Positions 9,146-63,104 of a DNA stretch of 64,000 bases are shown here, piece after piece; within the stretch, counting starts at the first letter, position 1, and the number at the start of each line of letters is the position of its first letter. The notes under the pieces are model-generated. The model was given only the letters and a program-made list of their open reading frames with translations. It had not been told where the DNA came from and made no database searches. Position numbers and translations under genes: made by a program. Source of the stretch: a phage; NCBI GenBank assembly GCA_012343875.1, contig GCA_012343875.1_3924.1, one strand, 5' to 3'.

Positions 9146-9568
9146 TTATTTCTCTCTCAGTTGGTTAAGTTTCTTTCTAGAACATTTTAAGTTTTCAGAT
9201 GAAGAAAAGTCAAGTGTCTTTTCAGAACGTGGATAATAGTGCCTATCCCAAGAAGTTTCAACATCGTTAATCAGTGACGCTAGATTACACAGGTCTGTAC
9301 CACTTTGCAACCTCTTTTTAAGAGAATCTAGTAAAGCAACTGTGTCTTTAGCTTTACGTCTCGCTGTAGCAACATCTTTCATATGCTCAAATACAGAGCA
9401 TTTTAAGTCATCTTCATAGTTTTCAGACAACTCTATTTCATGTTGTATATCAACCATTCTCCTGTGATGGTGAGCATATTCCCGTTGAGCAGCAATGTCA
9501 AGTTCTTCCAACTTCTGCAAAGCTCTAACAAAGTCAGCTATGTCTGGGTGAACAAACATTTTCTGCAT
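9146..9568 (-). CDS. hypothetical protein (140 aa)
   Basis: ORF track; first gene of the minus-strand operon. Confidence 0.5.
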   Translation of the reverse strand: MQKMFVHPDIADFVRALQKLEELDIAAQREYAHHHRRMVDIQHEIELSENYEDDLKCSVFEHMKDVATARRKAKDTVALLDSLKKRLQSGTDLCNLASLINDVETSWDRHYYPRSEKTLDFSSSENLKCSRKKLNQLREK

Positions 9569-9826
9569 GTAAGCCTCTTTTAAGTAACTATTAAGTTTTA
9601 ATCTTTTATCTTAACGTATTCTATACGTTATACTTTAAAGCTTTTTAAAAGCTATTAAATAATCTTTTAAGAGTTTTAAAGTATCTGTATAGTTAAACTG
9701 TTAAGTAACCTTTTAAGTAAAAAACCCACTTCGCAAAGATTAACACCTTGTCAAGTGCATTGTCAACTTGCTTTTTATAATTTTTTGCAGTAATGTATGA
9801 GGTTAATGGTTTTAGAGGGAGTAAAA
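9569..9826. promoter_or_regulatory. divergent promoter region between minus and plus replication operons
   Basis: AT-rich 258-bp gap between divergent gene starts; tandem TTGTCAA at 9748-9766, TATAAT at 9776-9781, CTTTTAAG-type repeats. Confidence 0.5.
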
Positions 9827-12526
9827 ATGGAAAACGTAGATTTTAAAAACTTACATTTAGTTGGTGATACAGAAACTGATGGTTTACTCCTTGAGTTCAC
9901 TAAAGTGCACGTAATGGCTTTCGCAGACTATAAATCTGACGATGAAGAGCCACCTGTATGGGTCTTTACAGATGAACCTATTCTCGGTCACAAGTACACC
10001 AAGTACATCAAGGGTGGCTTACGTGAAGGTATTGAGTTTGCGTTAAAGGCAAAACGTCTTTGCATCCATAACGGTCTCGGTTATGACTGGTGGGTTTTCA
10101 ATCACATTGCACCTGATTTATGGAACTTTGATAACCCAAAGTGTAAACCGTGGAGTAATTTCTTTCAGGATTCTCTTATCCAGTCTCGTGTTCAGTGGAT
10201 GGATAGACCAACTCCAAAGGGTTATAAAGGTGCTCATGGTTTGGCTGCATGGGGTGCTCGTGTTGGTGTTCGTAAACCAGAGATTGAACATTGGGGTGTG
10301 TGGAATGCAGAAATCTTCACTCGTGTTGTAGAAGATATCCGTATTAACGCCAAAACTAAACGGGCACTTGATAATGAGTATCTCAAGCTTAAGAAGTGTG
10401 GCATAGATACTTATGAAACCTACATGCGAGCTAAAGAAACATCTTTCTGGATGAGCCAGCAAGCTATCAATGGTTGGAAAGCTGATAAAGAGCTTATGGA
10501 GTTCCATGTAAAGGAACTTGACAAGTTGACTAATGAGCTTGCTTCAGAGGTTGAACCACATCTACCTCCAACTATTAAGACCAAAGGTAAAGTAACTGGT
10601 GAAGAGTTTGCAAAGGCTTGGAATGAGTATGTTGAAACATTTGGTCATGCAGATGGGTTGAAGAGAATCACCAAGTATCCTAAGACGAAGTACCGTCAAC
10701 AGGTGCGTAACGGTGAGATGCAGACATACGAAATCAAACCATTTGGTAAGCCAACTACAAAGATTTTTAACATTGAAAAGAGAAATTGCTATACACCAAC
10801 CAACTCTGTAACTGGTGAAGAGTACAAGGAAGGCTTTGTAGCAATGAAGGATGCTCGTGCAATTTGCAATGAGTTGAATGCAAAGATTGGTAAGAAATGC
10901 AAAGACTGGAAGCCAGTGAAAACAGTCAAAACTGTGAAGTACTATAACAGTCACGTTGTTAACCACTTTGAACTTGAGTCAAGTCGCTACACAGGTTTGA
11001 TTGATGCACCATATACACCAATTGATTTTGAAGTTTCTCGTATGACTCAGGTAGCAGTTGTTAAAGACTACTTGAAATCAGTTGGTTGGATTCCAGATGA
11101 CTGGAACTACAAGAAAGACTCAGACGGTCGCCCTGTCAAAGTTTGTCGTTTCAAAGACAATAAAAAGATGATTACAAAACATCCTAAGTGGCAGGAGATG
11201 GTAGAACGTTGTGGTTTAAGTTATGTTGAACATGAAGGTGTTCAGTACATTGAGCATAACTGGTCTGTGAAGAAGTACACAGATTTGCTTGAGCCTTGCT
11301 TAATCCGTACTTCACCAAAACTTACTGAATCATCTTATGATACGATTGAAGGTGAGCTTGGACAGAAGATTGCTAAGTACTATACTTTGATGCACCGACG
11401 CAGAACTATTGAGAACTCAAAGGATGATGAAAAAGGTTGGTTGAACCAGATTCGTCCTGATGGTCGCCTTAGTGCTGGTGCAATGGTGTTTGGTACTTCA
11501 ACTGGACGTATGACACAATATGGTATTGTAAACGTACCGTCTGGTGCTGCTGTCTATGGGGAACCAATGAGGGCAGTGTGGATTTGTGAGGAAGGTACTA
11601 ACGTTGTCTCTGTAGATATGAACTCAGCCCAGCTAGTTCTTCTTTGTAACTTTATGGGTGATAAAGACTTCACCAAAGCGGTAACGCAAGGTAAAGAAGA
11701 GATTGAGTTTATTCGTCAAGAAGATGGACGCTATTACTGCAAACATTTTGATGAGTACCTAAACCCAGAAATTGATAAGTACCTTCGCTATGACTCTGAG
11801 AATGACCTGTACGTTGTCTATTCAGGGACTGATGCACATACACTGAACAGTATCTACTTTAGCTTGAACGATGAGCAGGACATCTTGACTTGTCGAGCTA
11901 CTCAGGATGAGAATCTTCTTCATGAGATTAGCAAAGGTCGTAAGAAAGCTAAGAATGGTATCTATGCACTACTGTTTGGTGCAGGTGATGAGAAGTTTGC
12001 TAAGACGATTAAAGCTGCAACTACTCAGGAAGGTGCACTGACTAAACAAACTTACTTTATTCGTTTGCCTAAAATTAAGAAGCTACTAGATGACTTGGAA
12101 GCTGACTACAAAGCAACTAAAAAGGCACTTGAAGAGGTGTTTGGTAAGACTGCTGCAATCTCTAAAGGGGGTTTTGTAAAGGTTGCTGGAGCTTGGTTGT
12201 GGTGTAAATCTCCACACAAACTGTTGAACTACCTTTTGATGGGTTCAGAGGCCCAGATTCAAAATGAGGCAATTAACCTTGCTTGTCGTCGCATGATTGA
12301 CGAAGGGTTGATGAAGCTAAATGGGCGTAAACCAGCTATAGGTGCTCGTTTGCTCTGCGCATATCACGATGAAACAAGTTGGGAATGCCCAGAAAGTATG
12401 ACGGCAGAAGTGAAAGCAGTTACTGACTGGTATTATGGACAAGCTTCTAAAAACTTAGGTCTTAAGAAAGAAACACTTGTTACAGGTACTGGTAAGGTTG
12501 GTAAAAGCTGGCTTGAAGTACACTAA
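9827..12526 (+). CDS. DNA polymerase, family A (Pol I-like) with 3'-5' exonuclease domain
   Basis: VGDTETDGL (Exo I) near N-terminus, long polymerase domain; start moved to ATG 9827 (GGAGGGAG 5 nt upstream) rather than track start 9797. Confidence 0.9.
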   Translation: MENVDFKNLHLVGDTETDGLLLEFTKVHVMAFADYKSDDEEPPVWVFTDEPILGHKYTKYIKGGLREGIEFALKAKRLCIHNGLGYDWWVFNHIAPDLWNFDNPKCKPWSNFFQDSLIQSRVQWMDRPTPKGYKGAHGLAAWGARVGVRKPEIEHWGVWNAEIFTRVVEDIRINAKTKRALDNEYLKLKKCGIDTYETYMRAKETSFWMSQQAINGWKADKELMEFHVKELDKLTNELASEVEPHLPPTIKTKGKVTGEEFAKAWNEYVETFGHADGLKRITKYPKTKYRQQVRNGEMQTYEIKPFGKPTTKIFNIEKRNCYTPTNSVTGEEYKEGFVAMKDARAICNELNAKIGKKCKDWKPVKTVKTVKYYNSHVVNHFELESSRYTGLIDAPYTPIDFEVSRMTQVAVVKDYLKSVGWIPDDWNYKKDSDGRPVKVCRFKDNKKMITKHPKWQEMVERCGLSYVEHEGVQYIEHNWSVKKYTDLLEPCLIRTSPKLTESSYDTIEGELGQKIAKYYTLMHRRRTIENSKDDEKGWLNQIRPDGRLSAGAMVFGTSTGRMTQYGIVNVPSGAAVYGEPMRAVWICEEGTNVVSVDMNSAQLVLLCNFMGDKDFTKAVTQGKEEIEFIRQEDGRYYCKHFDEYLNPEIDKYLRYDSENDLYVVYSGTDAHTLNSIYFSLNDEQDILTCRATQDENLLHEISKGRKKAKNGIYALLFGAGDEKFAKTIKAATTQEGALTKQTYFIRLPKIKKLLDDLEADYKATKKALEEVFGKTAAISKGGFVKVAGAWLWCKSPHKLLNYLLMGSEAQIQNEAINLACRRMIDEGLMKLNGRKPAIGARLLCAYHDETSWECPESMTAEVKAVTDWYYGQASKNLGLKKETLVTGTGKVGKSWLEVH

Positions 12527-12587
12527 TTAGTATTGACAAGGTGCTCATGGAAGAGTACCTTATACTGTATCTTATATAGGAGGGCTT

Positions 12588-43183: not shown

Positions 43184-43259
43184 TGGAGAATCCGAAGGGA
43201 CTCGAACCCTTATAAACCTGTTTTGCAGACAGGCACATAGCCATTTCTGTCACGGATTC
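43184..43259 (-). tRNA. tRNA-Cys (GCA)
   Basis: Hand-folded: acceptor GAATCCG/CGGATTC, anticodon stem CCTGT/ACAGG with loop CTGCAAA, T-arm AAGGG-TTCGAGT-CCCTT, encoded CCA. Confidence 0.7.
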
Positions 43260-43263
43260 AAAT

Positions 43264-43356
43264 TGGAGGAAGATACCAGACTTGAACTGGTACACCGATT
43301 TCTCAGCTACTGGCAGTTTAGCAAACTGCTCCCTTACCTTTTAGGGTTAATCTTCC
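43264..43356 (-). tRNA. tRNA-Ser (GCT), type II
   Basis: Acceptor GGAAGAT/ATCTTCC, anticodon loop TTGCTAA, long variable arm, T-loop TTCAAGT, CCA; about 93 nt. Confidence 0.65.
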
Positions 43357-43357
43357 A

Positions 43358-44092
43358 TTATTTCTGTAATGCGTTCTTCATTTCTGGTGTTGCAATAGCA
43401 TCAATTACACCAGTTTTACAAGCATCATCAAACCAGTCTGGTAAGATACCTGCTAAGAACCCATTGATATTCGTTTTAAGGTACTCTGCAATAAGGGCAG
43501 CTTCTTCTTCAATCATCTGCACAACTTCATCTGCATAAGCTGTAATCTTCGAGATACCTTCATTAATCTTACTAACAGCTTGGTTAGCTAAATCAGAAAT
43601 AGTATCAAGATCTTTGTCAATAGCGTCTTGTAAATCACTTAATACATCATTAACACCGTCTAGTGCACTGTTAATCGTATCAATAGCTTTTTGACCATAC
43701 TCTGTAGCAACACCCATAATACCACTAAATGGTGTACAACCAACTTGTTCACCTGCTGCACCCATAACATTGGAATAACCTTTTGCTACCTGCATACGTG
43801 ATGAAAACTCATCAATGGATTTTTGACCGTAATCTGTCAGTGTTTTGGTGGTTGATGTAGTGCTTGTTAGACTCGTGGTAAAGCTGTTAAGCAGAACTGT
43901 TGTAAGTCCAGCAGCAACAAGCTTATCTTTTACTGTAGGGTCTGATACAGAACTAATAGAGCTTACAAGTGATGTAGAGGCAGCTACGGTTCCACCGAGA
44001 ACTGCTGCACCAGTAATAAGGGGGTTAGAAAACCCTTTACCAGTTTTTAAGAGATTAAAAATCTCCTTACCTTGTTCTGTCATCTCTTTCAT
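43358..44092 (-). CDS. hypothetical protein with hydrophobic segment and coiled-coil region
   Basis: Track ORF 43358..44155 trimmed to internal ATG 44092 to avoid overlap with tRNA-Phe; segment LITGAAVLGGTVAASTSLVSSISSV. Confidence 0.45.
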   Translation of the reverse strand: MKEMTEQGKEIFNLLKTGKGFSNPLITGAAVLGGTVAASTSLVSSISSVSDPTVKDKLVAAGLTTVLLNSFTTSLTSTTSTTKTLTDYGQKSIDEFSSRMQVAKGYSNVMGAAGEQVGCTPFSGIMGVATEYGQKAIDTINSALDGVNDVLSDLQDAIDKDLDTISDLANQAVSKINEGISKITAYADEVVQMIEEEAALIAEYLKTNINGFLAGILPDWFDDACKTGVIDAIATPEMKNALQK

Positions 44093-44108
44093 TAAGCACC
44101 TTTGAAAT

Positions 44109-44184
44109 TGGTAGTCCAGTGGGATTTGAACCCTCTTCTCATGTTTTTCAGACACGCGCTTTAACCATATAAGCTACTTGGACT
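44109..44184 (-). tRNA. tRNA-Phe (GAA)
   Basis: Anticodon stem-loop CGTGT-CTGAAAA-ACATG, T-loop TTCAAAT, CCA; ends approximate. Confidence 0.6.
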
Positions 44185-44190
44185 ATAAAT

Positions 44191-44266
44191 TGGGGTGACC
44201 TACGGGATTTGAACCCGTATAGACCATGTTCACAGCATGGGTCATTACCATTTATGATAAGGCCAC
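44191..44266 (-). tRNA. tRNA-His (GTG)
   Basis: Anticodon stem CCATG/CATGG with loop CTGTGAA, T-arm CGGG-TTCAAAT-CCCG, CCA. Confidence 0.65.
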
Positions 44267-44297
44267 ATTTAAGGACTCTCGTAAGAATCCTTAGAAG

Positions 44298-44373
44298 TGG
44301 CAGCGGCATAAGGATTTGAACCTTAATAAGACAGCTTCAGAGACTGCTGCATTGCCAGTTATGCTATACCGCT
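44298..44373 (-). tRNA. tRNA-Gln (CTG)
   Basis: Acceptor AGCGGTA/TGCCGCT, anticodon loop CTCTGAA, T-arm TAAGG-TTCAAAT-CCTTA, CCA. Confidence 0.6.
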
Positions 44374-44378
44374 AAATT

Positions 44379-51550: not shown

Positions 51551-52134
51551 CAGTAAGTTTTAATTACAATAGTGATGGCTCTGTATCAATTAATTCACCA
51601 TATGCAAATGACCTACTTAAAGAGCTAGTCAATCAGTGTGAGAGAGGTCTTCACTATGTTCAAAATTCTTTTAAACAGAAGACTATCGCTAATAACTTGA
51701 TGCGTGTAACAGTGACGCCATCGAATCCAAATTATGACTTTGATAGTGAAAGTCCGTACTCATTAGTTGCGCTTGGAGAGAGCAGCCAATTCAAACTTGT
51801 TTGCCACGACTCAGAAACATTTCTTAAGGTATTTTCCAACCTTATCCATAATAATAAGTACAGCTACGTTGATGGCAGTGTAAACTTCTATCCAGCAAAC
51901 TATACATGTTTGTTGGTTGATAATATGAGAAAAAGTAAGCAAGAACCTACAGAAATTTCATTTGATGTGAACTCTAGTCCAGACGCAGAAACAAGTAAGA
52001 ACTTCGATATGAGTTACGCATTGTCACTTAGTAAGAAATCCGAGTTCATTGATTATGTCAATGGATTTGGTTTTAAGTTTGATGAGAGTATGAATCTTAA
52101 AAAACTTAAGAACCTACTTAAGACCAAAGCTTAA
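51544..52134 (+). CDS. hypothetical protein (196 aa)
   Basis: ORF track; followed by hairpin AGGGGC/GCCCCT at about 52147-52165. Confidence 0.45.
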   Translation: MLTVSFNYNSDGSVSINSPYANDLLKELVNQCERGLHYVQNSFKQKTIANNLMRVTVTPSNPNYDFDSESPYSLVALGESSQFKLVCHDSETFLKVFSNLIHNNKYSYVDGSVNFYPANYTCLLVDNMRKSKQEPTEISFDVNSSPDAETSKNFDMSYALSLSKKSEFIDYVNGFGFKFDESMNLKKLKNLLKTKA

Positions 52135-52181
52135 GTGTGAATAGGGGCTGATGCCCCTTTAACTATTTATAAGGATATTTA

Positions 52182-52553
52182 ATGAAAGCTAAGAGTGCAA
52201 AAGACTTTTATTGCTTCCTACAATCCTATGTCAATTCCGTGCAAAATGGTGAAAGGTACAGCCTTAATGATGTTATCCCAACACCTTTGACATGGAGACT
52301 CAGCAAATGGCCTGAAGAAGATATTACACCAACAATCGAACATCGTACCTACAAACCCGAAATCAATATTCCAGACTCTGAGAATCTATTATATCCAATG
52401 TTCCATATTGTTGGTCTTGGAAGATTCCTTATGGATATCCAGTATGTAATTGGTAAAGGTTATAAGGTTAAAGGTATTGTTGTTGGTGACGTATCTCCGC
52501 ATCACAAAGGTTATTTTAGACTAAACGCACATTTAGAGGCTAAAAAGAAATGA
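52182..52553 (+). CDS. hypothetical protein, paralog of the N-terminal domain of the following Ig-repeat protein
   Basis: Shares MKAK..DF..F, GKRY, WPE.DI, YKP, LLY, FMD(I/L)QY.I..GK.V and LNA.L with residues 1-120 of ORF 52550..53683. Confidence 0.5.
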   Translation: MKAKSAKDFYCFLQSYVNSVQNGERYSLNDVIPTPLTWRLSKWPEEDITPTIEHRTYKPEINIPDSENLLYPMFHIVGLGRFLMDIQYVIGKGYKVKGIVVGDVSPHHKGYFRLNAHLEAKKK

Positions 52554-53683
52554 TTAAAGCAAAGACTTACCCAGACTTCAAAGAGTTTGTGAAGGGCTTC
52601 ATTGCAAACGTAAAGGCTGGTAAGAGATATGATTTTAGAACATATCAAGAGGCTATTTTACCGCTTACCTACAGTTCGTATTGGCCTGAAGCTGATATTG
52701 CAGAAGTCGATGAGTTTGACTACAAACCAGACTACAAAGTTCCATTTAGTGATGAGTTGCTTTACAGCATTGGTGCTCAAATGAGAACTTCTGACTTCTT
52801 CATGGACTTACAATATGCAATTATCAATGGTAAAGACGTTGATACAGTTTATTGTGAATGGCTGGCAAGAGTTAAACCATTCTCAATGTTGAATGCTAAG
52901 TTGAAGGACGCTATCAAGCCACCATCAATCACTCAGCAACCAACCAATCAAACAGTAAATGAAGGTGGTACACTTACCCTAAGCGTTGTTGCAACTAATA
53001 CCACTGGATATCAATGGAAAAAGGATGGTGAGGATATCACTAGCGCCACATCTGCAACCTACACAAAACAGTCTGTAGAACCTTCTGATGCCGGTTCATA
53101 CACTTGTGTTGTATCTGGAGAGGCTGGGACAAGCGTTACCTCAGATGCGGCAACAGTTACTGTCAACGCACTGCCTGTGATTACACAGCAACCTTCTAGC
53201 CAGACCGTCAATGAGGGTGGAAACATCAACTTGGAAGTGACTGCAACAGGTGCAACAGGTTATCAGTGGAAGAAAGATGGCTCTGACATTCCTACGGCTA
53301 CAGATGCAACCTATAGTAAGTCTGGTGCTCTGCCAGCAGATGCAGGTTCATACACTTGCGTTGTAACAGGTGCAGGTGGTTCTGTCACTTCTAGCCCTGC
53401 AACCGTTACTGTGAAAGCTTTACCAGTTATCACTCAACAGCCAACCAATCAAGAAATCACTGAAGGTGAGACCTTAACGCTGAATGTTGTGGCAACAGGT
53501 GCGACAGGTTACCAATGGAAGAAAGGTGAGGAAGACATCCTCGATGCAACTACTGCAACTTACACCAAAGAAGGTGCAACCGCTGCTGATGCAGGAAGCT
53601 ACACCTGTGTAGTTACTGGTGCAGGTGGCTCTGTAACATCCAATGCAGCAACAGTTACAGTTAACCCAGCAGGGGAGGCGTAA
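52550..53683 (+). CDS. protein with three tandem Ig-like domains
   Basis: Three about 80-aa repeats of ITQQP..Q.V.EG..L.L.V.AT...GYQWKKDG.DI..AT.ATY.K......DAGSYTCVV.G..GSVTS..ATVTV; N-terminal domain paralogous to the upstream ORF. Confidence 0.6.
   Translation: MIKAKTYPDFKEFVKGFIANVKAGKRYDFRTYQEAILPLTYSSYWPEADIAEVDEFDYKPDYKVPFSDELLYSIGAQMRTSDFFMDLQYAIINGKDVDTVYCEWLARVKPFSMLNAKLKDAIKPPSITQQPTNQTVNEGGTLTLSVVATNTTGYQWKKDGEDITSATSATYTKQSVEPSDAGSYTCVVSGEAGTSVTSDAATVTVNALPVITQQPSSQTVNEGGNINLEVTATGATGYQWKKDGSDIPTATDATYSKSGALPADAGSYTCVVTGAGGSVTSSPATVTVKALPVITQQPTNQEITEGETLTLNVVATGATGYQWKKGEEDILDATTATYTKEGATAADAGSYTCVVTGAGGSVTSNAATVTVNPAGEA
52919..53640 (+). repeat. intragenic tandem repeat (3 x about 240 bp) encoding the Ig-like domains
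   Basis: Near-identical DNA blocks beginning about 52919, 53161 and 53401. Confidence 0.7.
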
Positions 53684-54147
53684 TGCAACTCTCAAGAAAA
53701 GGTTTAGACGCTATTAAGTTCTTCGAAGGTCTGGAGTTAGAGGCTTACGAAGACTCTGCCGGAATCCCAACAATCGGGTATGGTACAATTCGTATTGACG
53801 GAAAACCTGTTAAGATGGGTATGAAAATTACTGCTGAACAAGCTGAACAGTATCTTCTCGCGGATGTTGAGAAGTTTGTTGCAGCAGTGAACAAAGCTAT
53901 CAAGGTTCCAACTACTCAGAATGAGTTCGATGCACTTGTAAGTGAAACATACAACATCGGTATCACAGCTATGCAGGACTCAACATTTATCAAGCGCCAC
54001 AACGCTGGTAATAAGGGAGGTTGTGCAGAAGCTATGCAGTGGTGGAACAAGGTTACAGTCAAAGGTAAGAAGGTCACTTCAAACGGACTGAAAAACAGAC
54101 GTAGAATGGAAGCTGACATTTATCTTGACAGTGTATACCCAAAGTAA
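53683..54147 (+). CDS. endolysin, T4-type lysozyme (GH24)
   Basis: FEGLELEAYEDSAGIPTIGYGT contains the catalytic Glu/Asp/Thr arrangement of T4 lysozyme-like muramidases; 154 aa. Confidence 0.85.
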   Translation: MQLSRKGLDAIKFFEGLELEAYEDSAGIPTIGYGTIRIDGKPVKMGMKITAEQAEQYLLADVEKFVAAVNKAIKVPTTQNEFDALVSETYNIGITAMQDSTFIKRHNAGNKGGCAEAMQWWNKVTVKGKKVTSNGLKNRRRMEADIYLDSVYPK

Positions 54148-54157
54148 TATCTTCATA

Positions 54158-54184
54158 GGCTCCTTCGGGAGCCTTTTTTATTTT
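54158..54184 (+). terminator. intrinsic terminator after endolysin gene
   Basis: Stem GGCTCC/GGAGCC with TTCG loop followed by TTTTTTATTTT. Confidence 0.75.
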
Positions 54185-54198
54185 CTAAGGAGAAAACT

Positions 54199-54597
54199 AT
54201 GAAACTTTGGGCTAGTGACTTTGGAACTTTTAAATACACTCGTAATGGTTCGCTTGTACGCATCATTGGAAACAATGTAGTTTCAAGAGGCGACAAGGTG
54301 TATACACGGTTTACTGTAGAGCTTGTTGAACTGTCACCTATTGAGTCTGTGAGCAATGGTATGTTCAAGTTTGAGACTTACAATGTCAATGAGCATGGAC
54401 AATTCAATCCTCTTGGTGAAAGTGGACTTGATATTATTTCAGAGCACCCATTGACAAAAGAGCAACTTGCAGGTTACTATAAAACTGTTCTGGAAAGGCA
54501 GTTAGCAACACATGAACAAGAAGCTAACTACCATTTACAGCATTGCGAAACTTTAAGAGCAAAAATCGAACAAGCAGAGAGAGGTTTTTATGAATAA
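54199..54597 (+). CDS. hypothetical protein (132 aa)
   Basis: ORF track; AAGGAGA upstream. Confidence 0.45.
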   Translation: MKLWASDFGTFKYTRNGSLVRIIGNNVVSRGDKVYTRFTVELVELSPIESVSNGMFKFETYNVNEHGQFNPLGESGLDIISEHPLTKEQLAGYYKTVLERQLATHEQEANYHLQHCETLRAKIEQAERGFYE

Positions 54598-54985
54598 TAA
54601 CAGTCATATCCACGTTAAAGTTGATGTCAGTCGTTACAGCGAAAATGAGGAACTAGACCTGCAAGATGCTCTTCTATTTGAGAAGAATGGCAATCTTCAT
54701 TTGCATTTTGAAGGTACAAATACGTACCTCCACAGATGCCGAGATGATGCAGACGGTTGTCCTGTTTTTGCTTGGCATAATTTAGAGTTTCCTCTTTACG
54801 CCATCCATTATCCAGATGGTGGGGAGGATTGGACAACCCAATCAATCCGCGATGAGCTTAATGGCATTCCAGTTGAGCAAGAAGAGCAAGAACCTGTTGA
54901 ACTCACCTTCACTTTTATCAAAGAAGAGAAAGTAGGTGACTTGTCAGTAACTGAAGCAATTCAAGTCTCACAGGTTATTCGTTAA
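54590..54985 (+). CDS. hypothetical protein (131 aa)
   Basis: ORF track; overlapping start/stop. Confidence 0.45.
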   Translation: MNNNSHIHVKVDVSRYSENEELDLQDALLFEKNGNLHLHFEGTNTYLHRCRDDADGCPVFAWHNLEFPLYAIHYPDGGEDWTTQSIRDELNGIPVEQEEQEPVELTFTFIKEEKVGDLSVTEAIQVSQVIR

Positions 54986-55278
54986 TGAGTAAAGTACAGG
55001 TTGTTTTCCCTATTTGTGACTTCTCACTAGAGCGTGAACTTGACCTGTACGAAGAAATTACTGACGAAATTATCTGGTCTGTTGTAGAAGAGGCTATCAA
55101 GAAGCTGTATGGTGGCCTCTTAAATCCATCAAGTAAGAAGTTAAGCACTAAGCAAGTAGCTGACCCATATATTTCATACGATGCCTACAACAAACCTTTT
55201 GAAAATACCTGCTTTGACCTTATGGTAGGTAATAACAAAGTCAACTATTTCTTCGTCAGAGAGTTTAACGATGAGTAA
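54985..55278 (+). CDS. hypothetical protein (97 aa)
   Basis: ORF track. Confidence 0.45.
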   Translation: MSKVQVVFPICDFSLERELDLYEEITDEIIWSVVEEAIKKLYGGLLNPSSKKLSTKQVADPYISYDAYNKPFENTCFDLMVGNNKVNYFFVREFNDE

Positions 55279-55615
55279 GCTCCATGTCACAGTGTACAAA
55301 AACTTCTCAGATATTAAAGAGTCTTTAACAAATAAGCTTGACTTACAACGTAAAAGACTCTTTTTAATGTATGACATTGACAACTACAACCATCCTAAAG
55401 AGTTTAACTACAAAGATGGCACAAAGGTTATTGAATTTGAAGATTCTGTAACGGTGTATGTCAAGTATGACTTACCAGCAAAGTACATAGGGATGTTGGA
55501 GTACTATATATTCAAACATACTGGTATGCGTGGTGAGTCTGTTAAGATATCTTCTATAGAAGTTTTTGAGAAACCTAACACACAACTTAAAAAGTATTTA
55601 ATGAGGAAACTGTAA
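55271..55615 (+). CDS. hypothetical protein (114 aa)
   Basis: ORF track. Confidence 0.45.
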   Translation: MSKLHVTVYKNFSDIKESLTNKLDLQRKRLFLMYDIDNYNHPKEFNYKDGTKVIEFEDSVTVYVKYDLPAKYIGMLEYYIFKHTGMRGESVKISSIEVFEKPNTQLKKYLMRKL

Positions 55616-56196
55616 TGTCAGAAGAACATGAGCATATCCAACCAGAAGTTACATTAGTAAAACATTTCGGAAATGTAGAAGGCTGTGTAGCACTTTTTCA
55701 GACTAACATCAATTCTCCAGTCAAACTGTGCAAATTGACGATAAACACCAACAATATCAGTGTATGTGTGAATGAAGAAGTCCAGTACTTCAAATTCAAT
55801 GATAAAGAGGTTGATGCTGCACTATTAAAGTACAGAGCAAATCTTGAAAAAGATATTGACCATAAAGAGGTTGTGAGTCTCTTTGCAGACCTTCATAAGC
55901 TTCTTGACAAGGTTGAAAAAAGAACATACTACATGAATAATGGTTCTATCATTACCACTATGATTTCACCATGTATCTCTGAGCCAATCTTCACGGATGA
56001 TGGTGCTTACTACATTGTAGCTTCGGCAGTGTCTGATTGGTGGTTAAAGAACAATGCCCTGAAAACAGTGATTGAGGCTATCAGAGAACACATCCCTACA
56101 TTTAGCCCGTGGAAAGGCAAAGGTGATGAATTTATCGCACTACTGAGTGAGGAAAGTAACAAGCGTAGTGCATTACTGCCTAAAAAATACTCTTGA
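55615..56196 (+). CDS. hypothetical protein (193 aa)
   Basis: ORF track. Confidence 0.45.
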   Translation: MSEEHEHIQPEVTLVKHFGNVEGCVALFQTNINSPVKLCKLTINTNNISVCVNEEVQYFKFNDKEVDAALLKYRANLEKDIDHKEVVSLFADLHKLLDKVEKRTYYMNNGSIITTMISPCISEPIFTDDGAYYIVASAVSDWWLKNNALKTVIEAIREHIPTFSPWKGKGDEFIALLSEESNKRSALLPKKYS

Positions 56197-56268
56197 CTGA
56201 GTATACAACATTAATTATGATGGGAGCTATCGAGAGGTAGTTCCCTTTTTAGTTTCTGGAGAATAGAT

Positions 56269-56814
56269 ATGGCTACAGTGAAAGAAAAAGATAAAATAAT
56301 TTTGTACGTTAAACAGAATCCGTCAAAGAGTGTTGAGGCTGTTGTAACACATATCTCACACAACGGTATTGTTTATTTCAGGCCACTGAAGAACTTAGAT
56401 TTTGACATGACACCAAACCACACATTTAGTACTTCTGCAAGGCTGTGTGCAGGGACTGTATACTCAACTGCTGAGATTGAGTCTTTATCTTTCACAGGTG
56501 CTTACAAGAACTTTATAGGGATTGCTCTAAAGGACTCTGAAGAATCTTTTAAATTTTTCATGGAGACTAATAAAGGTTGCTACGCACATGTTATGCCAGT
56601 CTATAAGAAAGTTGACACAGAACTTACCAGTAAGTGCGAGGAGATTAGTAGTGACCTGAAGGAGCGCAAAACAGCTATTCAGAATGCCATTCACATCATT
56701 GAGAGGAACCATTTAGAAGTTCTTTTCAGAGATATGCTAAAAGCAGGGTTTACTCCAAACGAAATTACAAGAGAAACACAACGTCAGTTCAGAAATGCTA
56801 TGGTGAAAGAATGA
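56269..56814 (+). CDS. hypothetical protein (181 aa)
   Basis: ORF track. Confidence 0.45.
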   Translation: MATVKEKDKIILYVKQNPSKSVEAVVTHISHNGIVYFRPLKNLDFDMTPNHTFSTSARLCAGTVYSTAEIESLSFTGAYKNFIGIALKDSEESFKFFMETNKGCYAHVMPVYKKVDTELTSKCEEISSDLKERKTAIQNAIHIIERNHLEVLFRDMLKAGFTPNEITRETQRQFRNAMVKE

Positions 56815-57029
56815 AAAAACTAACTACAGTTGAAGATTACTACAAACTGTCCTTGTTAGAACAGTATCGCAGAAGCCAGAATATCAGAAAATGCTATGGT
56901 AAACATGCTGAAGGTGACTTTTACCATTGTTACGATGCAGATTTAAAAGGTGTAACACCTAGAGGGAAAGTCCTGCAAAGATTTGTTGACCTTGAATGGA
57001 ACAAACGATTGAGAGGGGTTGGAAAATGA
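56811..57029 (+). CDS. hypothetical protein (72 aa)
   Basis: ORF track. Confidence 0.4.
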   Translation: MKKLTTVEDYYKLSLLEQYRRSQNIRKCYGKHAEGDFYHCYDADLKGVTPRGKVLQRFVDLEWNKRLRGVGK

Positions 57030-57529
57030 TTTTTGAAGAGAGATATAAGATAGATTACCAGGATACTCGTCATCATACTTCTTTAAGAGTAACCAAACCA
57101 AATGGAGATACTGGTATCATAGCACATTTTGGTGGTGATTATTGGTATGGTACAGGTTGCTTTGAAGGCTACAATCAAGAATACTTGAAAGCTTTCTACA
57201 GAGACTTTACAAATGACTACAACAGGGTTGTTGAAGAGAAGAATAAGTGCATTAAGCATGAATACCACGCCAGAGGTTGTCTGAATATTGTTATGATACT
57301 GGTTTTCTTCTTAGCAACATTGCTAGCCGTATCAGCAATCAGCTACATAGCTCAAGACTTGACCATTACACAGATTACTGCAAAGTTACATGATATCTGG
57401 TACTTGTATACTGTTCCTTTAGCTGGTATTATCATCTCACTAATGAGATTCAGGGTTCATAAGAAACGACTTAAGGATTCTGAGGTTAAACTTGAAGAGG
57501 TAAGTAAAGAATGCAACCTACAATTATAG
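57026..57529 (+). CDS. hypothetical membrane protein (about 167 aa)
   Basis: Start taken at ATG 57026 (ATGA overlap, GAGAGGGG upstream); transmembrane-like LNIVMILVFFLATLLAVSAISYIA. Confidence 0.4.
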   Translation: MIFEERYKIDYQDTRHHTSLRVTKPNGDTGIIAHFGGDYWYGTGCFEGYNQEYLKAFYRDFTNDYNRVVEEKNKCIKHEYHARGCLNIVMILVFFLATLLAVSAISYIAQDLTITQITAKLHDIWYLYTVPLAGIIISLMRFRVHKKRLKDSEVKLEEVSKECNLQL

Positions 57530-57605
57530 CTGTGTGTGTTCGTTTTGCAATCGCTGAAATGATTAACAAGGCAATCTTAAAAGATGCCTATGGAGAGACT
57601 AAGTA

Positions 57606-57830
57606 ATGATTAAGACACCTGTACCAATTTTTGGATTTCCTTCTATAGAAGAGTTTAAAGTTTATCTTGACAAAAACTTCTACAACGAGCAGCCTGTTAC
57701 TTTGCTGAAGAGTGACTTATCAGAGCTTCTTGATATGGTTATCAAGGCAACTCCTGAGAAGGAACCTGAGCAGAAAGCTGAGAAGAAGACTAGTAAGAAA
57801 TCCGATAAGAAGACTGAAAAGTCTGAGTAA
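57606..57830 (+). CDS. hypothetical protein with Lys/Glu-rich C-terminus (74 aa)
   Basis: ORF track. Confidence 0.4.
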   Translation: MIKTPVPIFGFPSIEEFKVYLDKNFYNEQPVTLLKSDLSELLDMVIKATPEKEPEQKAEKKTSKKSDKKTEKSE

Positions 57831-57883
57831 TAACTTAGGGGTTACTTGATAGCCCCTTTGTAGAAACTTAGAAGGTAGCGAAT

Positions 57884-58312
57884 ATGCAAATCATAGCTGG
57901 TCAAGAACTTGACATCATAGATGCAAAAACACAGGAGTACATCGCAACAGTGAAGGTTATAGGAGTCAGGGAGTGGAATACTGAATACCCAATTCAATGC
58001 CTTGTGCTGGAGAAGTTTAAAGCTAATGGTGTACACTTTTACCACGGTGACTACATCAGCTTTAACAAAGACGGTTATTGGCAAGGTAAGAACCATCCTC
58101 AAGCAAATAAGTTTGATATGCGTCTAGTGATACCACAAAAAGGTAAATCACAAAATGTAAAAGATATCCTTGTAGAAGCCTATGAAGAGGGTATAATAGA
58201 TATTGTGCATGATGTTGAAAAAGCTTTAAAGCTTGTTATGCCACATTTAGAGTCTGGAAAGCTGACTTTAGAGATGCTTAATAGGGTTATTCGGAGAGCT
58301 TATGAAAATTAA
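57884..58312 (+). CDS. hypothetical protein (142 aa)
   Basis: ORF track. Confidence 0.45.
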   Translation: MQIIAGQELDIIDAKTQEYIATVKVIGVREWNTEYPIQCLVLEKFKANGVHFYHGDYISFNKDGYWQGKNHPQANKFDMRLVIPQKGKSQNVKDILVEAYEEGIIDIVHDVEKALKLVMPHLESGKLTLEMLNRVIRRAYEN

Positions 58313-58766
58313 AGAAACAGTTCGAAAAGCAATGCTTACCAATTCAACTAAAGATGAAATGTACAAAGAAATCTGTGATGAGTTGAATTGCTCAAGACAT
58401 GCTGCTAAGGTTCTTGTACATTGTTTTATCTGGGAATGTTCAGAAGCATATATGAAACACGTAGCTTTTGAAAGTTCTAACTTACTAGGTGATGTAGAAG
58501 CTAGTGAGAAGCTAAAAGAACCTGAAGTGAAAACAGTCCCTAAAGTTGGTAATACATACCCTCTTAAAGACTTCAAGACTGGAAAGATTGTTGCAAAAGG
58601 TGTAGTAGAATCTGTTTATCATGATGGTAAATACTTACTTAAAATATTCGAGTATGACAGCCACTATACGCACTTATGTGGGATTACATTCTTAGTAACA
58701 GAAGAAGACCTTATTAGGAACAATAGCAACAAGTTTGCAGTACCAGCTTACCAAGTTTTACGATAA
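58302..58766 (+). CDS. hypothetical protein (154 aa)
   Basis: ORF track. Confidence 0.45.
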   Translation: MKIKETVRKAMLTNSTKDEMYKEICDELNCSRHAAKVLVHCFIWECSEAYMKHVAFESSNLLGDVEASEKLKEPEVKTVPKVGNTYPLKDFKTGKIVAKGVVESVYHDGKYLLKIFEYDSHYTHLCGITFLVTEEDLIRNNSNKFAVPAYQVLR

Positions 58767-58779
58767 CGGTGTGATAGAT

Positions 58780-59328
58780 ATGGAAAAAGATAACTTAAAA
58801 GAAGTTGAAGGTAACTACCTAGTCCTTGATTGGAGTGATGTTCGGGAAGCACTCTCCGAAGAAAATCTTGACTGGTTCGAACAAATTATCTTTGCAGTAC
58901 GGCATAACAGAGAAGTTGAAAATGGTAAAGAGCCACTTGAAGGAATCTTTGTAGAGAAGTCTTATCCGTTCTATGAAGACACTTTACAGAAAGTTAAGAT
59001 GTACTTTAGACAGAAGAACCGTAAAGTGGTCACTATGGTATCTCTTGGTGGACAGAATATGTCTGTGATGGAAGATATTAATCCTAAGAGACCGAGTAAA
59101 GGTATCTGTATAAAAATCACAGGACATGAAGAGTATATCTCAGTGGATGACTTTAGTGCATTCTGTAATGGCTCTTGTGTCTTTAATGGTTTTCACTATG
59201 ATATCCGAGTGTACCCAATCAAGGGAGATGATATCATGATGCAGGTATTTGATAACAACAACGGCTTTACTCATTTTTATCAGACAACCAAGTCATCACT
59301 AAAAACAGTTCTGGAAACACTGATTTAA
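58780..59328 (+). CDS. hypothetical protein (about 182 aa)
   Basis: Track ORF 58735..59328 appears to start at a non-ATG codon; first in-frame ATG at about 58780. Confidence 0.4.
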   Translation: MEKDNLKEVEGNYLVLDWSDVREALSEENLDWFEQIIFAVRHNREVENGKEPLEGIFVEKSYPFYEDTLQKVKMYFRQKNRKVVTMVSLGGQNMSVMEDINPKRPSKGICIKITGHEEYISVDDFSAFCNGSCVFNGFHYDIRVYPIKGDDIMMQVFDNNNGFTHFYQTTKSSLKTVLETLI

Positions 59329-59340
59329 AAATATCTTAAG

Positions 59341-59372
59341 AGCCTCCTTAATTGGGGGCTTTTTAATTTTTT
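59341..59372 (+). terminator. intrinsic terminator at end of plus-strand operon
   Basis: Stem AGCCTCC/GGGGGCT followed by TTTTTAATTTTTT. Confidence 0.65.
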
Positions 59373-59375
59373 ATA

Positions 59376-60917
59376 AAATTTTATCGGTTGTCCCAACCTC
59401 TGGGTCACCATCATATGTGAATAAAATATCTACCCTTCTTAACAACCTTCTTAATCTTACTCTCTATATATATAGTTATATAGTACTATATAGTATCTTA
59501 GTAACTCTCTAGTGGTCTTAATAGCCCCTCTGTATAACCCTTCTAACAAGCCCTCTAACAAGCCTTCTAAACAACCTATACAATCACCTTAACCATATCT
59601 CTACACCCTCTTAGAAGCTCCTATACACCTCTTAATCTCTATGTTAGCTATGACACTCTCTATAGGTGTTCACTAGGTATTACTAAGCCTCTATATAGAC
59701 TGTTTTAACAAACTTAACAGGAACATCTTTACAGACCTTATCTCACAAGGTCTAACACGGCACTAACAAGGTATCTTATAATCCTGTTTCTACCTGTATT
59801 TTTAAAAGACTGTATAGGTAATTATTCAGAATTTTAAAATTTTTATAAAATAGGACTATCAAGTCATTTTTTAGGGTCTTTGAAGGAACTCAAAAATATC
59901 TGTAGAAGATGTATATCTGCTTGGTAGCCCTTAACAGCTCCCTTACAAGTACTTTGCAAAATTTTAAAATATCCTTAACAATCTCTTAACAGTTCTCACA
60001 TCTTCTTAACAACTCTTCAAAGGTCTTAACAGTTTCTTAACAGAACTAACAAGGCTGTAACAGTTTTCTAACAAGTGCTGAATAGGCTTTACAGAATCTT
60101 AACAGATGACTAACAAGAGCTAACAAGTTAATTTTAAAGAGTTATTTTGTTAAGATAATTAACAAGTTTCTAACAAGTGTTTAATCTTTTTAACAAGCTA
60201 TTAACATGGTCACTATCTCTTTTCTTATCGTTCCCTTCCTTTCTTAGTGATTCTCTAAATATCCCTCTTAAAAGCTCTCTATAGCTCCTTGTAAGCTCTT
60301 TTAAGTCTCTTCCTAGTAATTACACCCCAACTGTATAGATACCTCTTTATAGGGCTTTACAGGAGCTTTTAAGGCTATGCCAAAGACTCTTACAAGGCTT
60401 TTACGTGGTCTTAACAGAGATTTAACAATGGGCTAACAAGTCTCTAACAAGTGCCTTAAAAGCATAACTATGTAGGGTTTGTTAAGAAATTGTTAAGAAA
60501 ATGTTAAGGGGGCTAGCATTTACGTAACTTTTAAGCTATCTATCACGTAACTTTGAAGTAACTTTATAGCCCCCTATAACATACTTTTTAGTGACTATCA
60601 AGGGGATTGTTTAGTTATTCACAAGATACTAGCCAACCTATTAGCTTATACCCTTATAAGATTCTTTTAAGCCTCTATAAAGCCCTGTAAAGAGCTTTTA
60701 AGGGTGAGTTAATGCAATCCCTTAAGTTAGATTGATAAGGCTGTTATAGCGCTTTATAGAGCGTTTAAATGGGCCATCCCCTTTCTGGGGTTATTGGCTT
60801 ATATTTAAGTTGATTTGATAAAAGGCTATAGAGTAGACTATAGAGTTATTGCTTTTAAGGTCTGATAAGATTCTGAAAAGGTGAGGAAAGGGATTGTATA
60901 AGGATTGGATAGACGTA
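59376..60917. repeat. ORF-free repeat-dense region with phased YTAACAR heptamers
   Basis: No ORF of 60 aa or more in any frame; about 25 copies of YTAACAR, many 10-11 bp apart (59977-60210, 60410-60450); CTTTTAAG and GTAACTTT repeats; palindromes at 59465-59493. Confidence 0.8.
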
Positions 60918-60940
60918 AAAAAGCCCCTGTGAGGGGCTGT
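60918..60940 (-). terminator. intrinsic terminator at end of minus-strand small-gene array
   Basis: Stem GCCCC/GGGGC (loop TGTGA) followed on minus strand by U-run. Confidence 0.65.
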
Positions 60941-61227: not shown

Positions 61228-61318
61228 TTTAGAATCTCCTAGTTTAAGGTTTTATTTAGTAGGGAGGCCATCCCTCCCCGTTGATTAGTAATTTACTGCA
61301 TGTTGGCGTATGTTGCAA
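61228..61318 (-). promoter_or_regulatory. repeated leader cassette 1: promoter-like TTGCAA-17-TAAATT, GC hairpin, SD
   Basis: On minus strand: TTGCAA (61313-61318), 17 nt, TAAATT (61290-61295), hairpin GGGAGG/CCTCCC, then GGAG before ATG. Confidence 0.5.
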
Positions 61319-61556
61319 GCCTTTTTTCGTTGTATTTTGTAAGAATCTCACAAGATAAAACATCATATTTTATAACCGCGTTGCTTTTGTCGAGGTCAAA
61401 GAATCCAAACGCTTTACCATCTTTGAATCCGACAACTTCATAAGATTCTTTGATGATTTCACCATTGAACAAATCGCTTTCGATGCGGTGAAACAGTGCT
61501 ACGTCTTCTTTGTCAGTTGCAATTTGCAATAGTGTGGTTAATTCTACGTTTTCCAT
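61293..61556 (-). CDS. hypothetical protein (87 aa)
   Basis: ORF track; preceded by conserved leader cassette. Confidence 0.5.
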   Translation of the reverse strand: MENVELTTLLQIATDKEDVALFHRIESDLFNGEIIKESYEVVGFKDGKAFGFFDLDKSNAVIKYDVLSCEILTKYNEKRLATYANMQ

Positions 61557-61648
61557 CTTGATAACTCCAGTTTAGGACTTTATTTAGTGGGGAAGGTCAT
61601 CCCCTCCCCGTTGATTGACAATTTACAGATTTTTGATTGTCTCGTCAA
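61557..61648 (-). promoter_or_regulatory. repeated leader cassette 2: TTGACG-17-TAAATT, hairpin, SD
   Basis: On minus strand: TTGACG (61643-61648), 17 nt, TAAATT (61620-61625), hairpin GGGGAAGG/CCCTCCCC, CTGGAG SD. Confidence 0.5.
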
Positions 61649-62153
61649 TGTCTTTTTCAATATCTTTTAAAGTTTTTTCTAAGTTCTTGATATTGAACGT
61701 TAAACCTTCTCCCAGTGTCTTAGAGTAACCGCTAGGACGTAAATCATAAAGCTCGATTTCTTCCACTAGAGAAAGGTTAACAGTCCAGCCACCTATGCCG
61801 TAGGCCATTGAAACGGTATTTACAGGTGCTTTATAGAACTTGTTCAAGGACTTGATAGAACGTTCATAAGCCATTTTATAACCATTTAAAAGGTTTTTAA
61901 CGTGATTGTGAACGTTTTTACAATCATCTAAGTAAAGACCTAAAAACATCGGGAGAAGTTCCGCGACAGCTTGCATAAAGTGAGAGACTACAACGGTGGA
62001 AACATTACGACGATGGACGTAATAAGCCCCGTTTTCTGATTTGGTAATGGTTGCAAAGTGTACACCATTGCAACGAAATTCATAGGTATCTTTAACAGGC
62101 TTAGACATTACAGCATTTGAACGAATGAAGTTGATAGCTTGAAATTTGTTCAT
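61623..62153 (-). CDS. hypothetical protein (176 aa)
   Basis: ORF track; preceded by conserved leader cassette. Confidence 0.5.
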   Translation of the reverse strand: MNKFQAINFIRSNAVMSKPVKDTYEFRCNGVHFATITKSENGAYYVHRRNVSTVVVSHFMQAVAELLPMFLGLYLDDCKNVHNHVKNLLNGYKMAYERSIKSLNKFYKAPVNTVSMAYGIGGWTVNLSLVEEIELYDLRPSGYSKTLGEGLTFNIKNLEKTLKDIEKDIDETIKNL

Positions 62154-62244
62154 TTTAGAATCTCCAGTTTAGGACTTTATTTAGTGGGGAGGTTATTGCC
62201 TTCCCGTTGATTAGTAATTTACTTGTTTTGATAGCTGATTGCAA
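62154..62244 (-). promoter_or_regulatory. repeated leader cassette 3: TTGCAA-17-TAAATT, hairpin, SD
   Basis: TTGCAA (62239-62244), 17 nt, TAAATT (62216-62221), hairpin GGGGAGG/CCTTCCC, SD. Confidence 0.5.
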
Positions 62245-62373
62245 GCAATTTTTTAAGTTTATCTATAAAGAATCTTTTAAGTTAATCCATTTTAGATAAA
62301 CCCCCTCGAACAAAGTTACCAATGTCAAGGGGAGTTGTCAACACTTTTTTAAAAGTTTTTTGTAAGTTGTTGA

Positions 62374-62715: not shown

Positions 62716-62807
62716 TTTTGAATCTCCAGTTTAGGACTTTGTTTAGTGGGGAAGTTCATTCCCTCCCCGTTGATTGACAATTTACAGATTTTTATCAGGC
62801 TTGTCTA
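62716..62807 (-). promoter_or_regulatory. repeated leader cassette 4: TAGACA-17-TAAATT, hairpin, SD
   Basis: TAGACA (62802-62807), 17 nt, TAAATT (62779-62784), hairpin GGGGAAGTTCATTCCCTCCCC, SD. Confidence 0.45.
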
Positions 62808-63038: not shown

Positions 63039-63104
63039 GATTTAAGCCCTCTAAAAGCCCCTACAAGGGGTTGATTAGTGTTTATAAGGTGATTGCATAG
63101 GTTT

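Follow-up and report, generated by a model that had tools for sequence, protein, structure and literature searches.

The question raised by this locus is which genes a 25-bp motif serves, and what reads it. We analysed 64,000 nucleotides of contig GCA_012343875.1_3924.1 (the window), which belong to a Felix O1-like phage (Felixounavirus) and are oriented in reverse relative to the Felix O1 record. The motif occurs as ACACCTTGTCAAGTGCATTGTCAAC at 9743-9767 (site 1) and as ACACCTTGTCAAGTACTTTGTCAAC at 51051-51075 (site 2), with two mismatches between the copies; the DNA flanking both sites shares 96-99% identity with that of over 250 Felix O1-like myoviruses infecting E. coli, Salmonella and Shigella. 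An earlier note on this DNA had taken its two direct TTGTCAA repeats for an operator or activator site shared by two plus-strand operons. We find that the motif is probably the upstream half of a leftward (minus-strand) promoter of sigma-70 type, one copy of which lies in each divergent control region.

The recurrence described in the earlier note is borne out: with up to three mismatches allowed, the whole window contains exactly these two matches, and 100 dinucleotide-preserving shuffles contain none. So is the tandem arrangement with its 12-bp period, counted from start to start: TTGTCAA heptamers begin at 9748 and 9760 in site 1 and at 51056 and 51068 in site 2. Neither intergenic region holds a further copy, leaving two hexamers per site. 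The likeness of the two regions reaches past the 25-mer, for instance with AACCTTTTAAGT placed 30 nt to the left of both copies.

Open reading frames (ORFs) of the window form four co-oriented blocks. The first occupies the minus strand up to 9568; the second, headed by the DNA polymerase gene, the plus strand from 9827 to about 19.6 kb; the third, with structural genes and 26 tRNAs, the minus strand from 19.7 kb to 50924; and the fourth the plus strand from 51174 to 59328, followed by a 1.5-kb non-coding stretch beyond which minus-strand genes resume. There are only two divergent intergenic regions, 9568 to 9827 and 50924 to 51174, and each carries one copy of the motif. It is thus true by position that the motif lies upstream of both plus-strand operons, and it lies just as much upstream of both minus-strand operons. 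The Felix O1 counterparts of these regions, gene 96/97 for site 1 and gene 40/41 for site 2, were presumed in the genome paper to be the origins of four 'transcriptons', and the divergent layout at genes 40/41 was termed 'odd' (PMC3185647). No promoter was evident to its authors in the gene 96-97 region; the only one found was 'P41' (PMC3185647).

Read on the minus strand, the motif takes a familiar form. TTGTCAA is the reverse complement of TTGACAA, the sigma-70 -35 consensus plus an A. Site 1 then reads aaaaaattataaaaagcaag-TTGACA-atgcac-TTGACA-aggtgt-TAATCT, and site 2 gttaaaaaagttg-TTGACA-aagtac-TTGACA-aggtg-TAGGCT. Scanning the whole window for TTGACA pairs with starts 9-14 bp apart adds a site 3 of the same build, aaaaaagtg-TTGACA-actcccc-TTGACA-ttgg-TAACTT, located between two co-oriented early genes, with hexamer starts 13 bp apart. 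These are the three perfect tandems of the window: all are intergenic, lie on the minus strand, have an A-tract upstream and place a TAnnnT hexamer 17 or 18 bp from the outer TTGACA. An additional tandem with one mismatch, at 5281 on the minus strand, also has TAnnnT at 17 or 18 bp from its outer hexamer. Altogether, four tandems (at most one mismatch) followed by TAnnnT are observed, against 0.3 expected from Markov simulations; beyond the window, the Felix O1 genome has another 23 kb, in which no further tandem TTGACA occurs.

At all three sites the outer hexamer matches the -35 consensus in 6/6 positions (Table 1), and the spacing to the -10 is that of a promoter: N18 TAATCT at site 1, N17 TAGGCT at site 2 and N17 TAACTT at site 3. 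The earlier statement that neither repeat stands at a -35 distance from a -10 does not hold on this strand. Of the three sites, only site 1 (TGt/TGg) and site 3 (TGg/TGa) have, and conserve, the TGn of an extended -10. UP elements have A/T tracts at -38 to -59 with the proximal consensus AAAAAARNR, which is matched exactly by AAAAAAGTG of site 3, and partially by AAAAAAGTT of site 2 and AAAAAGCAA of site 1. Each leftward copy would then comprise a UP-like A-tract, a perfect -35 (the outer TTGACA), a 17- or 18-bp spacer enclosing the inner TTGACA, and a weak TAnnnT -10.

Table 1. Coordinates in the window of the doubled promoters and of the rightward candidate promoters beside them.
Feature	Coordinates	Strand	Remarks
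Site 1, 25-bp motif	9743..9767	-	reads GTTGACAATGCACTTGACAAGGTGT
Site 1, outer TTGACA, proposed -35 of leftward promoter	9761..9766	-	invariant in 20 unique orthologues; faces gene 9146..9568 (Felix O1 genes 97 onward)
Site 1, inner TTGACA, in spacer, about -25..-20	9749..9754	-	invariant; no -10-like hexamer 15-19 bp downstream
Site 1, putative extended -10, TG(9745..9744)-t-TAATCT(9742..9737)	9737..9745	-	inferred start ~9730; orthologues TAATCT/TAGTCT, always after TGn
Site 1, A-tracts (AAAAAATTATAAAAA), UP-element-like, upstream of outer hexamer	9772..9786	-	proximal part invariant as CTTGCTTTTT (plus strand)
Site 1, rightward DNA polymerase promoter candidate, TTGCTT(9768-9773)-N17-TAATGT(9791-9796)	9768..9796	+	1 bp from leftward -35, back to back
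Site 2, 25-bp motif	51051..51075	-	reads GTTGACAAAGTACTTGACAAGGTGT
Site 2, outer TTGACA, proposed -35 (Felix O1 'P41')	51069..51074	-	invariant in 13 unique orthologues
Site 2, inner TTGACA, in spacer	51057..51062	-	invariant
Site 2, putative -10 TAGGCT, 17 bp from outer hexamer	51046..51051	-	predicted start ~51039
Site 2, A-tract (AAAAAA) directly upstream of outer hexamer	51079..51084	-	like single-hexamer promoters at minus 48945 and 49036
Site 2, leftward unit: gene 50553..50924, vWA-domain gene, tRNA cluster, structural genes		-	
Site 2, rightward promoter of 51174-59328 operon, TTGACT-N17-TACCAT	51100..51128	+	invariant in relatives
Site 3, third promoter of same build, TTGACA(62341..62336), TTGACA(62328..62323), TAACTT(62318..62313)	62313..62341	-	

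We then compared the orthologous regions of Felixounavirus, Suspvirus and Mooglevirus phages, collected from IMG/VR and GenBank, which amount to 20, 13 and 17 unique sequences for sites 1, 2 and 3, respectively. The motif is present at the orthologous positions. Both hexamers are free of substitutions, exactly over TTGACA, at all three sites. The base flanking TGTCAA on the plus strand varies (ATGTCAA, CTGTCAA); the invariant unit is TGTCAA, that is TTGACA on the minus strand, and not the TTGTCAA that had been read on the plus strand. Nowhere does the region vary more than in the 4-7 nt separating the hexamers, with 2-4 variants per column (among them GTGCA, GTACA, GTGTA, GCGCA, GTTAT, GAGGA and TCCCC). 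The -10 is constant only in its T, its A and its final T: the variants are TAATCT/TAGTCT at site 1, TAGGCT/TAGCCT/TAAGTT/TAGTGT at site 2 and TAACTT/TAATGT/TAGATT at site 3. The A-tract is conserved at all three sites. Constrained hexamers, a free spacer sequence and a fixed spacer length are the signature that a sigma-70 promoter on the minus strand should leave; the exception is the inner hexamer, which is constrained although it lies in the spacer.

Phages less closely related provide an argument from spacing. In Hafnia phage SarahDanielle the hexamer starts are separated by 10 bp at site 1 and by 11 bp at site 2, yet the distance from the outer hexamer to the -10 (TAATGT and TACTCT, respectively) is 17 bp at both. 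Erwinia Kolesnikviruses have a single TTGACA-N17-TACATT at site 1, on the same strand, and TTGACA-N16-TAGAAT at site 2, likewise on the same strand, with a second TTGACA 28 bp further downstream. The intergenic region of site 2 (50925-51173) is about 93% identical across Felixouna-, Susp- and Mooglevirus, compared with about 85% identity to Moogleviruses for the kilobase around it (intergenic region included), so the non-coding part is more constrained than the neighbouring genes.

These data bear directly on the model of the earlier note, an activator or operator site of the plus-strand operons. Such a site might be response-regulator-like or lambda CII-like, with the tandem TTGTCAA replacing a -35. 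Direct repeats do stand upstream of both operons. At site 1 they end 9 bp before a TATAAT (9776-9781), a geometry recalling the Pho box, and at site 2 TTGTCA(51068)-N18-AATAGT, with a TGc, makes a possible plus-strand promoter using the repeat as its -35. However, the TATAAT lies in a freely variable stretch: it is not conserved in Suspvirus or Mooglevirus orthologues, and relatives have GAAACT, GAAGAT, CATAAA or GTGTCG in its place, while the repeats are invariant. Through the variable first T of TTGTCA (ATGTCA, CTGTCA) the plus strand loses a consensus base, and the minus-strand hexamer remains perfect. The conserved plus-strand promoters moreover lie at differing distances from the repeats, which are found at about -42/-54 relative to the plus-strand start at site 1, at about -66/-78 at site 2 and farther in the Hafnia phage, whose site 2 plus-strand promoter is about 110 bp away; the outer hexamer is always 17-18 bp from the minus-strand -10. 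Such an inconstant distance is not the behaviour of an activator site.

The repeats also call known systems to mind. In the Pho box, to which PhoB binds, two CTGTCAT repeats follow each other at a fixed 11-bp period and stand 10 bp upstream of the -10. The TGTCA core of the direct repeats, and the TATAAT 9 bp downstream at site 1, resemble it; the period of 12 bp here (10-13 bp elsewhere), the non-conserved downstream -10 and the TTGACA unit on the other strand do not. Sites of lambda CII and P22 C1, TTGC-N6-TTGC with a 10-bp period, straddle a poor -35. The likeness lies in direct TTG-containing repeats overlapping the -35 region, and the difference in a variable period and full, perfect -35 hexamers; this virulent phage is not known to have a CII homologue. 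Consensuses of PhoB, CII, IHF, DnaA, FNR, sigma-54, sigma-32 and sigma-E were also compared with the sequence, and none fits in spacing or core. We therefore consider an activator or operator site of the plus-strand operons quite unlikely. What stands of the earlier proposal is a shared cis-regulatory element, conserved, beyond chance and common to two control regions; its tie to the plus-strand operons finds no support. The motif is thus real, conserved and regulatory, and is most likely part of the promoters of the minus-strand operons.

Plus-strand transcription can be assigned to candidate promoters of its own. At site 1, TTGCTT and GTAnnGT are invariant among orthologues on the plus strand, with a spacer that is always 17 bp long and free in sequence, and the Hafnia phage has TTGCAA-N17-TACTAT at the same place. 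Judging by this pattern, the DNA polymerase promoter most likely adjoins the leftward -35 at a distance of 1 bp, back to back with it. Its overlap with the leftward A-tract would set the two promoters in competition for polymerase. Two other -10 candidates for the DNA polymerase gene, TATAAT at 9776 and TGcAGTAAT at 9786, were rejected, neither being conserved.

At site 2, the outer hexamer could in principle work both ways: being near-palindromic (TTGACAA/TTGTCAA), it would serve as the -35 of both divergent promoters in a mutually exclusive manner. There, the same 6 bp belong to TTGACA-N17-TAGGCT on the minus strand and to TTGTCA-N18-(TGc)AATAGT on the plus strand, and TTGCAATAGT is largely conserved. 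But the plus strand of site 1 offers no -10 at 16-19 bp from TTGTCA, indels stretch the plus-strand spacer of site 2 to 19 bp in some relatives, and a Moogle phage has ATGTCA. The invariant TTGACT-N17-TACCAT, moreover, already explains rightward transcription at site 2. We regard a shared -35 as unlikely.

The leftward promoters have well-known counterparts. The T5/T7 A1 early promoters and E. coli rrn P1 are strong promoters of sigma-70 type, with a UP-element-like A-tract and a consensus -35. Those of the window resemble them in the A-tract at about -40 to -56, the perfect TTGACA, the 17-18 bp spacer, the TAnnnT and, at two of three sites, the TGn. They differ from them by a second perfect TTGACA in the spacer, equally conserved, and by a weak -10 (3/6). 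The use of host polymerase would be a further likeness, given that the Felix O1 authors found neither a phage RNA polymerase or sigma gene nor genes for polymerase-modifying or specificity-changing proteins (PMC3185647).

Part of this has been annotated before. Felix O1 'P41' is TTGACA(N15)TATAGG on the outer hexamer of site 2, with a different -10 chosen (PMC3185647). In the ASO1A GenBank record, consensus-scan promoters lie on the same strand at site 1 (TTGACA-N16-GTTAAT, starting at the outer hexamer) and on the inner hexamer of site 2; the accompanying paper contains no experiments on them. The AYO145A record has consensus-scan promoter features on the same DNA. All these annotations chose other -10 hexamers, and the duplication and its conservation are never mentioned in them. 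Searches for Felix O1 or Felixounavirus start sites, promoters, transcriptomes or sequence strings returned nothing beyond consensus-scan annotation in the searchable literature. The novelty is accordingly modest: the leftward promoters are ordinary and were already partly annotated in two relatives, and the new part is the strictly conserved second -35 box in the spacer.

The sequences themselves show the anatomy of the doubled promoters, its statistical excess and how it is conserved; polymerase binding, start sites and early timing are what we infer from them. Host RNA polymerase holoenzyme would start near 9730 at site 1 and near 51039 at site 2. The transcript from site 1 would cover the unit of Felix O1 genes 97-131 and 1-23, and that from site 2 would cover Felix O1 genes 41-79, with the DUF5681 gene, the vWA gene, 26 tRNAs, the terminase and the structural genes. 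The only expression data come from end-point reverse transcription-polymerase chain reaction (RT-PCR): of the 21 Felix O1 ORFs that peak at 5 min, 19 belong to the two leftward units, and the DNA polymerase gene (ORF 96) peaks at 25 min. This timing agrees, weakly, with a model in which leftward transcription is early.

Several points weigh against the promoter assignment. It rests wholly on sequence and comparison: no transcription start mapping or in vitro transcription for Felix O1-like phages was found in the searchable literature, and the timing by RT-PCR is noisy, being measured at end point. With a mere 3/6 positions shared with TATAAT, the -10 hexamers fail a simple consensus scan; at site 2 the conserved TG abuts the -10 hexamer directly, out of register for a TGn. 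Leftward transcripts would have long leaders of about 160 and 115 nt. Finally, the inner hexamer is invariant although it lies within the spacer, which an ordinary promoter model leaves unexplained.

What, then, is the role of the inner hexamer? It is located 10-13 bp from the outer one (start to start) and 4-7 bp from the -10, yet at three promoters it varies no more than the true -35 does. We considered it as the -35 of a second, overlapping promoter and rejected this: no TAnnnT is found 15-19 bp downstream at site 1, at site 3 or at either Hafnia site, and at site 2 there is only a poor AATACT at 15 bp, not kept in SUSP1. Provided that the rest of the assignment is right, we lean slightly towards the inner hexamer being read by sigma-70 region 4 as a second docking register, which would aid polymerase capture or tune the promoter. 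Region 4 is favoured as the reader because the unit is the exact sigma-70 optimum, its phasing is not strict, and phages of unrelated hosts have the arrangement too; a dedicated repressor at the inner hexamer is less likely.

The recurrence came to light by chance. An IMG/VR scan with TTGTCAAG-N2-6-TGTCAA was too unspecific for retrieving relatives, and incidentally exposed tandem TTGACA promoters elsewhere. Among the 122 matches listed for TTGACA-N2-6-CTTGACAA, TAnnnT peaks at a 17-bp spacer both from the outer hexamer (12/122) and from the inner one (10/122), over a background of about 0-5 per position. Promoters built as TTGACA-N5/6-CTTGACAAG-N3-6-TAnnnT are present on unrelated IMG/VR contigs (L022, L096 and L122, marine myophage; L057, L058, L108), and one family of tandem-TTGACA promoters adjoins the gp55 late-sigma gene of marine T4-like myophages. 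On a 203-kb contig (L068; positions 6637, 8537 and 12571), three promoters have three hexamers in a row: TTGACA-N5-TTGACA, then after 8-10 bp a third -35-like hexamer (TTGACT; GTGGACA in one), N17, and TATATT/TATAAT.

A regulator is the other candidate reader. Both TTGACA(A) boxes, or at least the inner one, could bind a phage or host protein, for example an early shut-off repressor sitting on the -35 and spacer, and switch all three leftward promoters together; this is compatible with their being promoters. Such an operator would account for an inner hexamer that is invariant despite its spacer position and the lack of a -10 of its own, and for the same doubled arrangement at three promoters. 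The sequence CTTGACAAG also forms a 4+1+4 palindrome at sites 1 and 2, and the overlap of the site 1 rightward promoter with the leftward UP/-35 makes a switch mechanistically attractive. Against it, the conserved unit is the exact sigma-70 optimum hexamer and not this palindrome, and its flanks vary (CCTGTCAAG, GTTGTCAAG, TTGTCAAT). Start-to-start distances of 10-13 bp, and of 4-7 bp to the -10, are hard to reconcile with a rigid dimer or a fixed polymerase contact, and tandem TTGACA promoters in unrelated phages of very different hosts argue for a universal reader. A Pfam scan of seven proteins from the flanking genes detected no DNA-binding domain, only DUF5681 and DUF2828/DUF7788/vWA, and the Felix O1 paper found no polymerase-modifying genes (PMC3185647). 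An operator thus seems possible, though doubtful.

T4 middle promoters combine a MotA box, TGCTTtA at -30, with a sigma-70 -10. They share with the sites described here a conserved element between -35 and -10, and the plus strand of site 1 carries TTGCTTTTT. The inner TTGACA differs in being centred at about -22, instead of a TGCTT at -30; TTGCTT is absent at site 2, and the two sites have no TGCTT box in a common position. Polymerase-modifying genes are absent according to the Felix O1 paper (PMC3185647); a search for MotA/AsiA genes was not part of our analysis.

A role at the DNA level is a further alternative, with the repeats acting in replication or partition as iterons, an initiator site or a centromere-like site and not in transcription. 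The AT-rich divergent regions, next to the DNA polymerase gene, do contain several short repeats, and the GenBank record of one relative labels another nearby repeat 'possible StbAB binding site'. Yet there are only two hexamers per site, equal to the -35 consensus, and not the three or more even repeats, beside an AT-rich unwinding element, of an iteron origin. The A-tracts and a -10 at the right spacing, with the substitution pattern of a -10, fit a promoter exactly, and the third copy lies between two co-oriented early genes. We regard this alternative as highly improbable.

We propose only tentatively, as an idea with the odds against it, that the doubled -35 represents a promoter architecture of its own, with an important function, in which an inner TTGACA at about -25..-20 is selected as strictly as the true -35 in three early promoters of at least four Ounavirinae groups, and which recurs in unrelated phages. 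If it is functional, the inner hexamer may be a second landing site of sigma-70 region 4 that changes the kinetics of capture or escape, or else the target of a shut-off or switch factor. In the latter case, the back-to-back divergent promoters would flip from leftward (early) to rightward transcription (DNA polymerase, tail/lysis). In any event, a strictly conserved second -35 box is a small, testable oddity of sigma-70 promoter architecture. The timing of transcription in Felix O1-like phages is little understood, and the analysis provides conservation-backed candidate promoters for all four units at the two divergent regions, along with the prediction that the leftward and rightward promoters of site 1 overlap and hence compete. 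Early promoters, once defined, would be of practical use, as these phages widely serve for Salmonella and E. coli biocontrol and typing, and as chassis for engineering (Bas63).

Some minor features accompany the promoters. The 11-mer TTGACAAGGTG, which at sites 1 and 2 comprises the inner hexamer with its flank, is found again in two candidate promoters with a single hexamer: at 12533-12543 (+), directly after the DNA polymerase stop codon and followed by N17 TACCTT, and at Felix O1 79299 (L196:6800), upstream of a small ORF after nrdD and followed by N18 TAGGCT. Ahead of the 26 tRNA genes (43184-48889), every one of which is on the minus strand, lie two single-hexamer promoters, at minus 48945 and 49036, that have the same A-tract and TTGACAA as upstream half (ttttaaaaaagttcTTGACAA, tttaaaaagggtaTTGACAA). 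The record of Salmonella phage Si3 (NC_041922; L014/L146) is linearised inside site 2, ending at about position 51040 of the window and beginning at about 51054, probably an arbitrary assembly break at the repeat and not a physical terminus. In the UAB_Phi87 record, which we take to open at its mapped terminal repeats, site 2 is about 6 kb from the record start.

Each leftward leader contains an inverted repeat, AACGTAT-TCT-ATACGTT at 9613-9629 for site 1, its pairing kept by double substitutions in Mooglevirus-type relatives, and AGATATC-N6-GATATCT at 50973-50992 for site 2, invariant in all relatives; each could be an RNA hairpin or a palindromic operator. In an Rfam scan of 9400-9950 the only match was a chance one to a snoRNA (E = 0.39), and we rejected an RNA element as the explanation. 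The 8-mer CTTAAAAG at 9710..9717 (-) is 19 nt downstream of the site 1 -10, with equivalents at 51018-51025 (20 nt) and 62274-62281 (31 nt). On both strands (CTTTTAAG/CTTAAAAG) it has 25 copies in the window versus about 6 expected, for example at 9577, 9664, 9710, 50947, 50956, 51018, 60267-60852 and 62274; they are concentrated in the two divergent regions and the spacer at 60 kb, with no longer consensus visible.

That spacer, 59370-60920, corresponds to the gap between Felix O1 genes 23 and 24. It comprises about 1.5 kb of non-coding DNA between terminator-like hairpins recognised by eye on the plus strand (59340-59366) and on the minus strand (60917-60938), is dense in short repeats (CTTAACA/CTAACAAG, CTATATAG) and includes 8 of the CTTTTAAG/CTTAAAAG copies; it could be an origin, a packaging region or a terminal-repeat region. 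Beyond it, at 61241-63997, an intergenic cassette of about 80 nt (a terminator hairpin GGGGAGGG...CCCCAC, a Shine-Dalgarno sequence and the start codon) recurs in front of a number of small early genes on the minus strand and makes up the repeat families D4, D7, D8, D14 and D19. The cassettes presumably match the direct repeats that the Felix O1 paper describes between genes 15 and 21.

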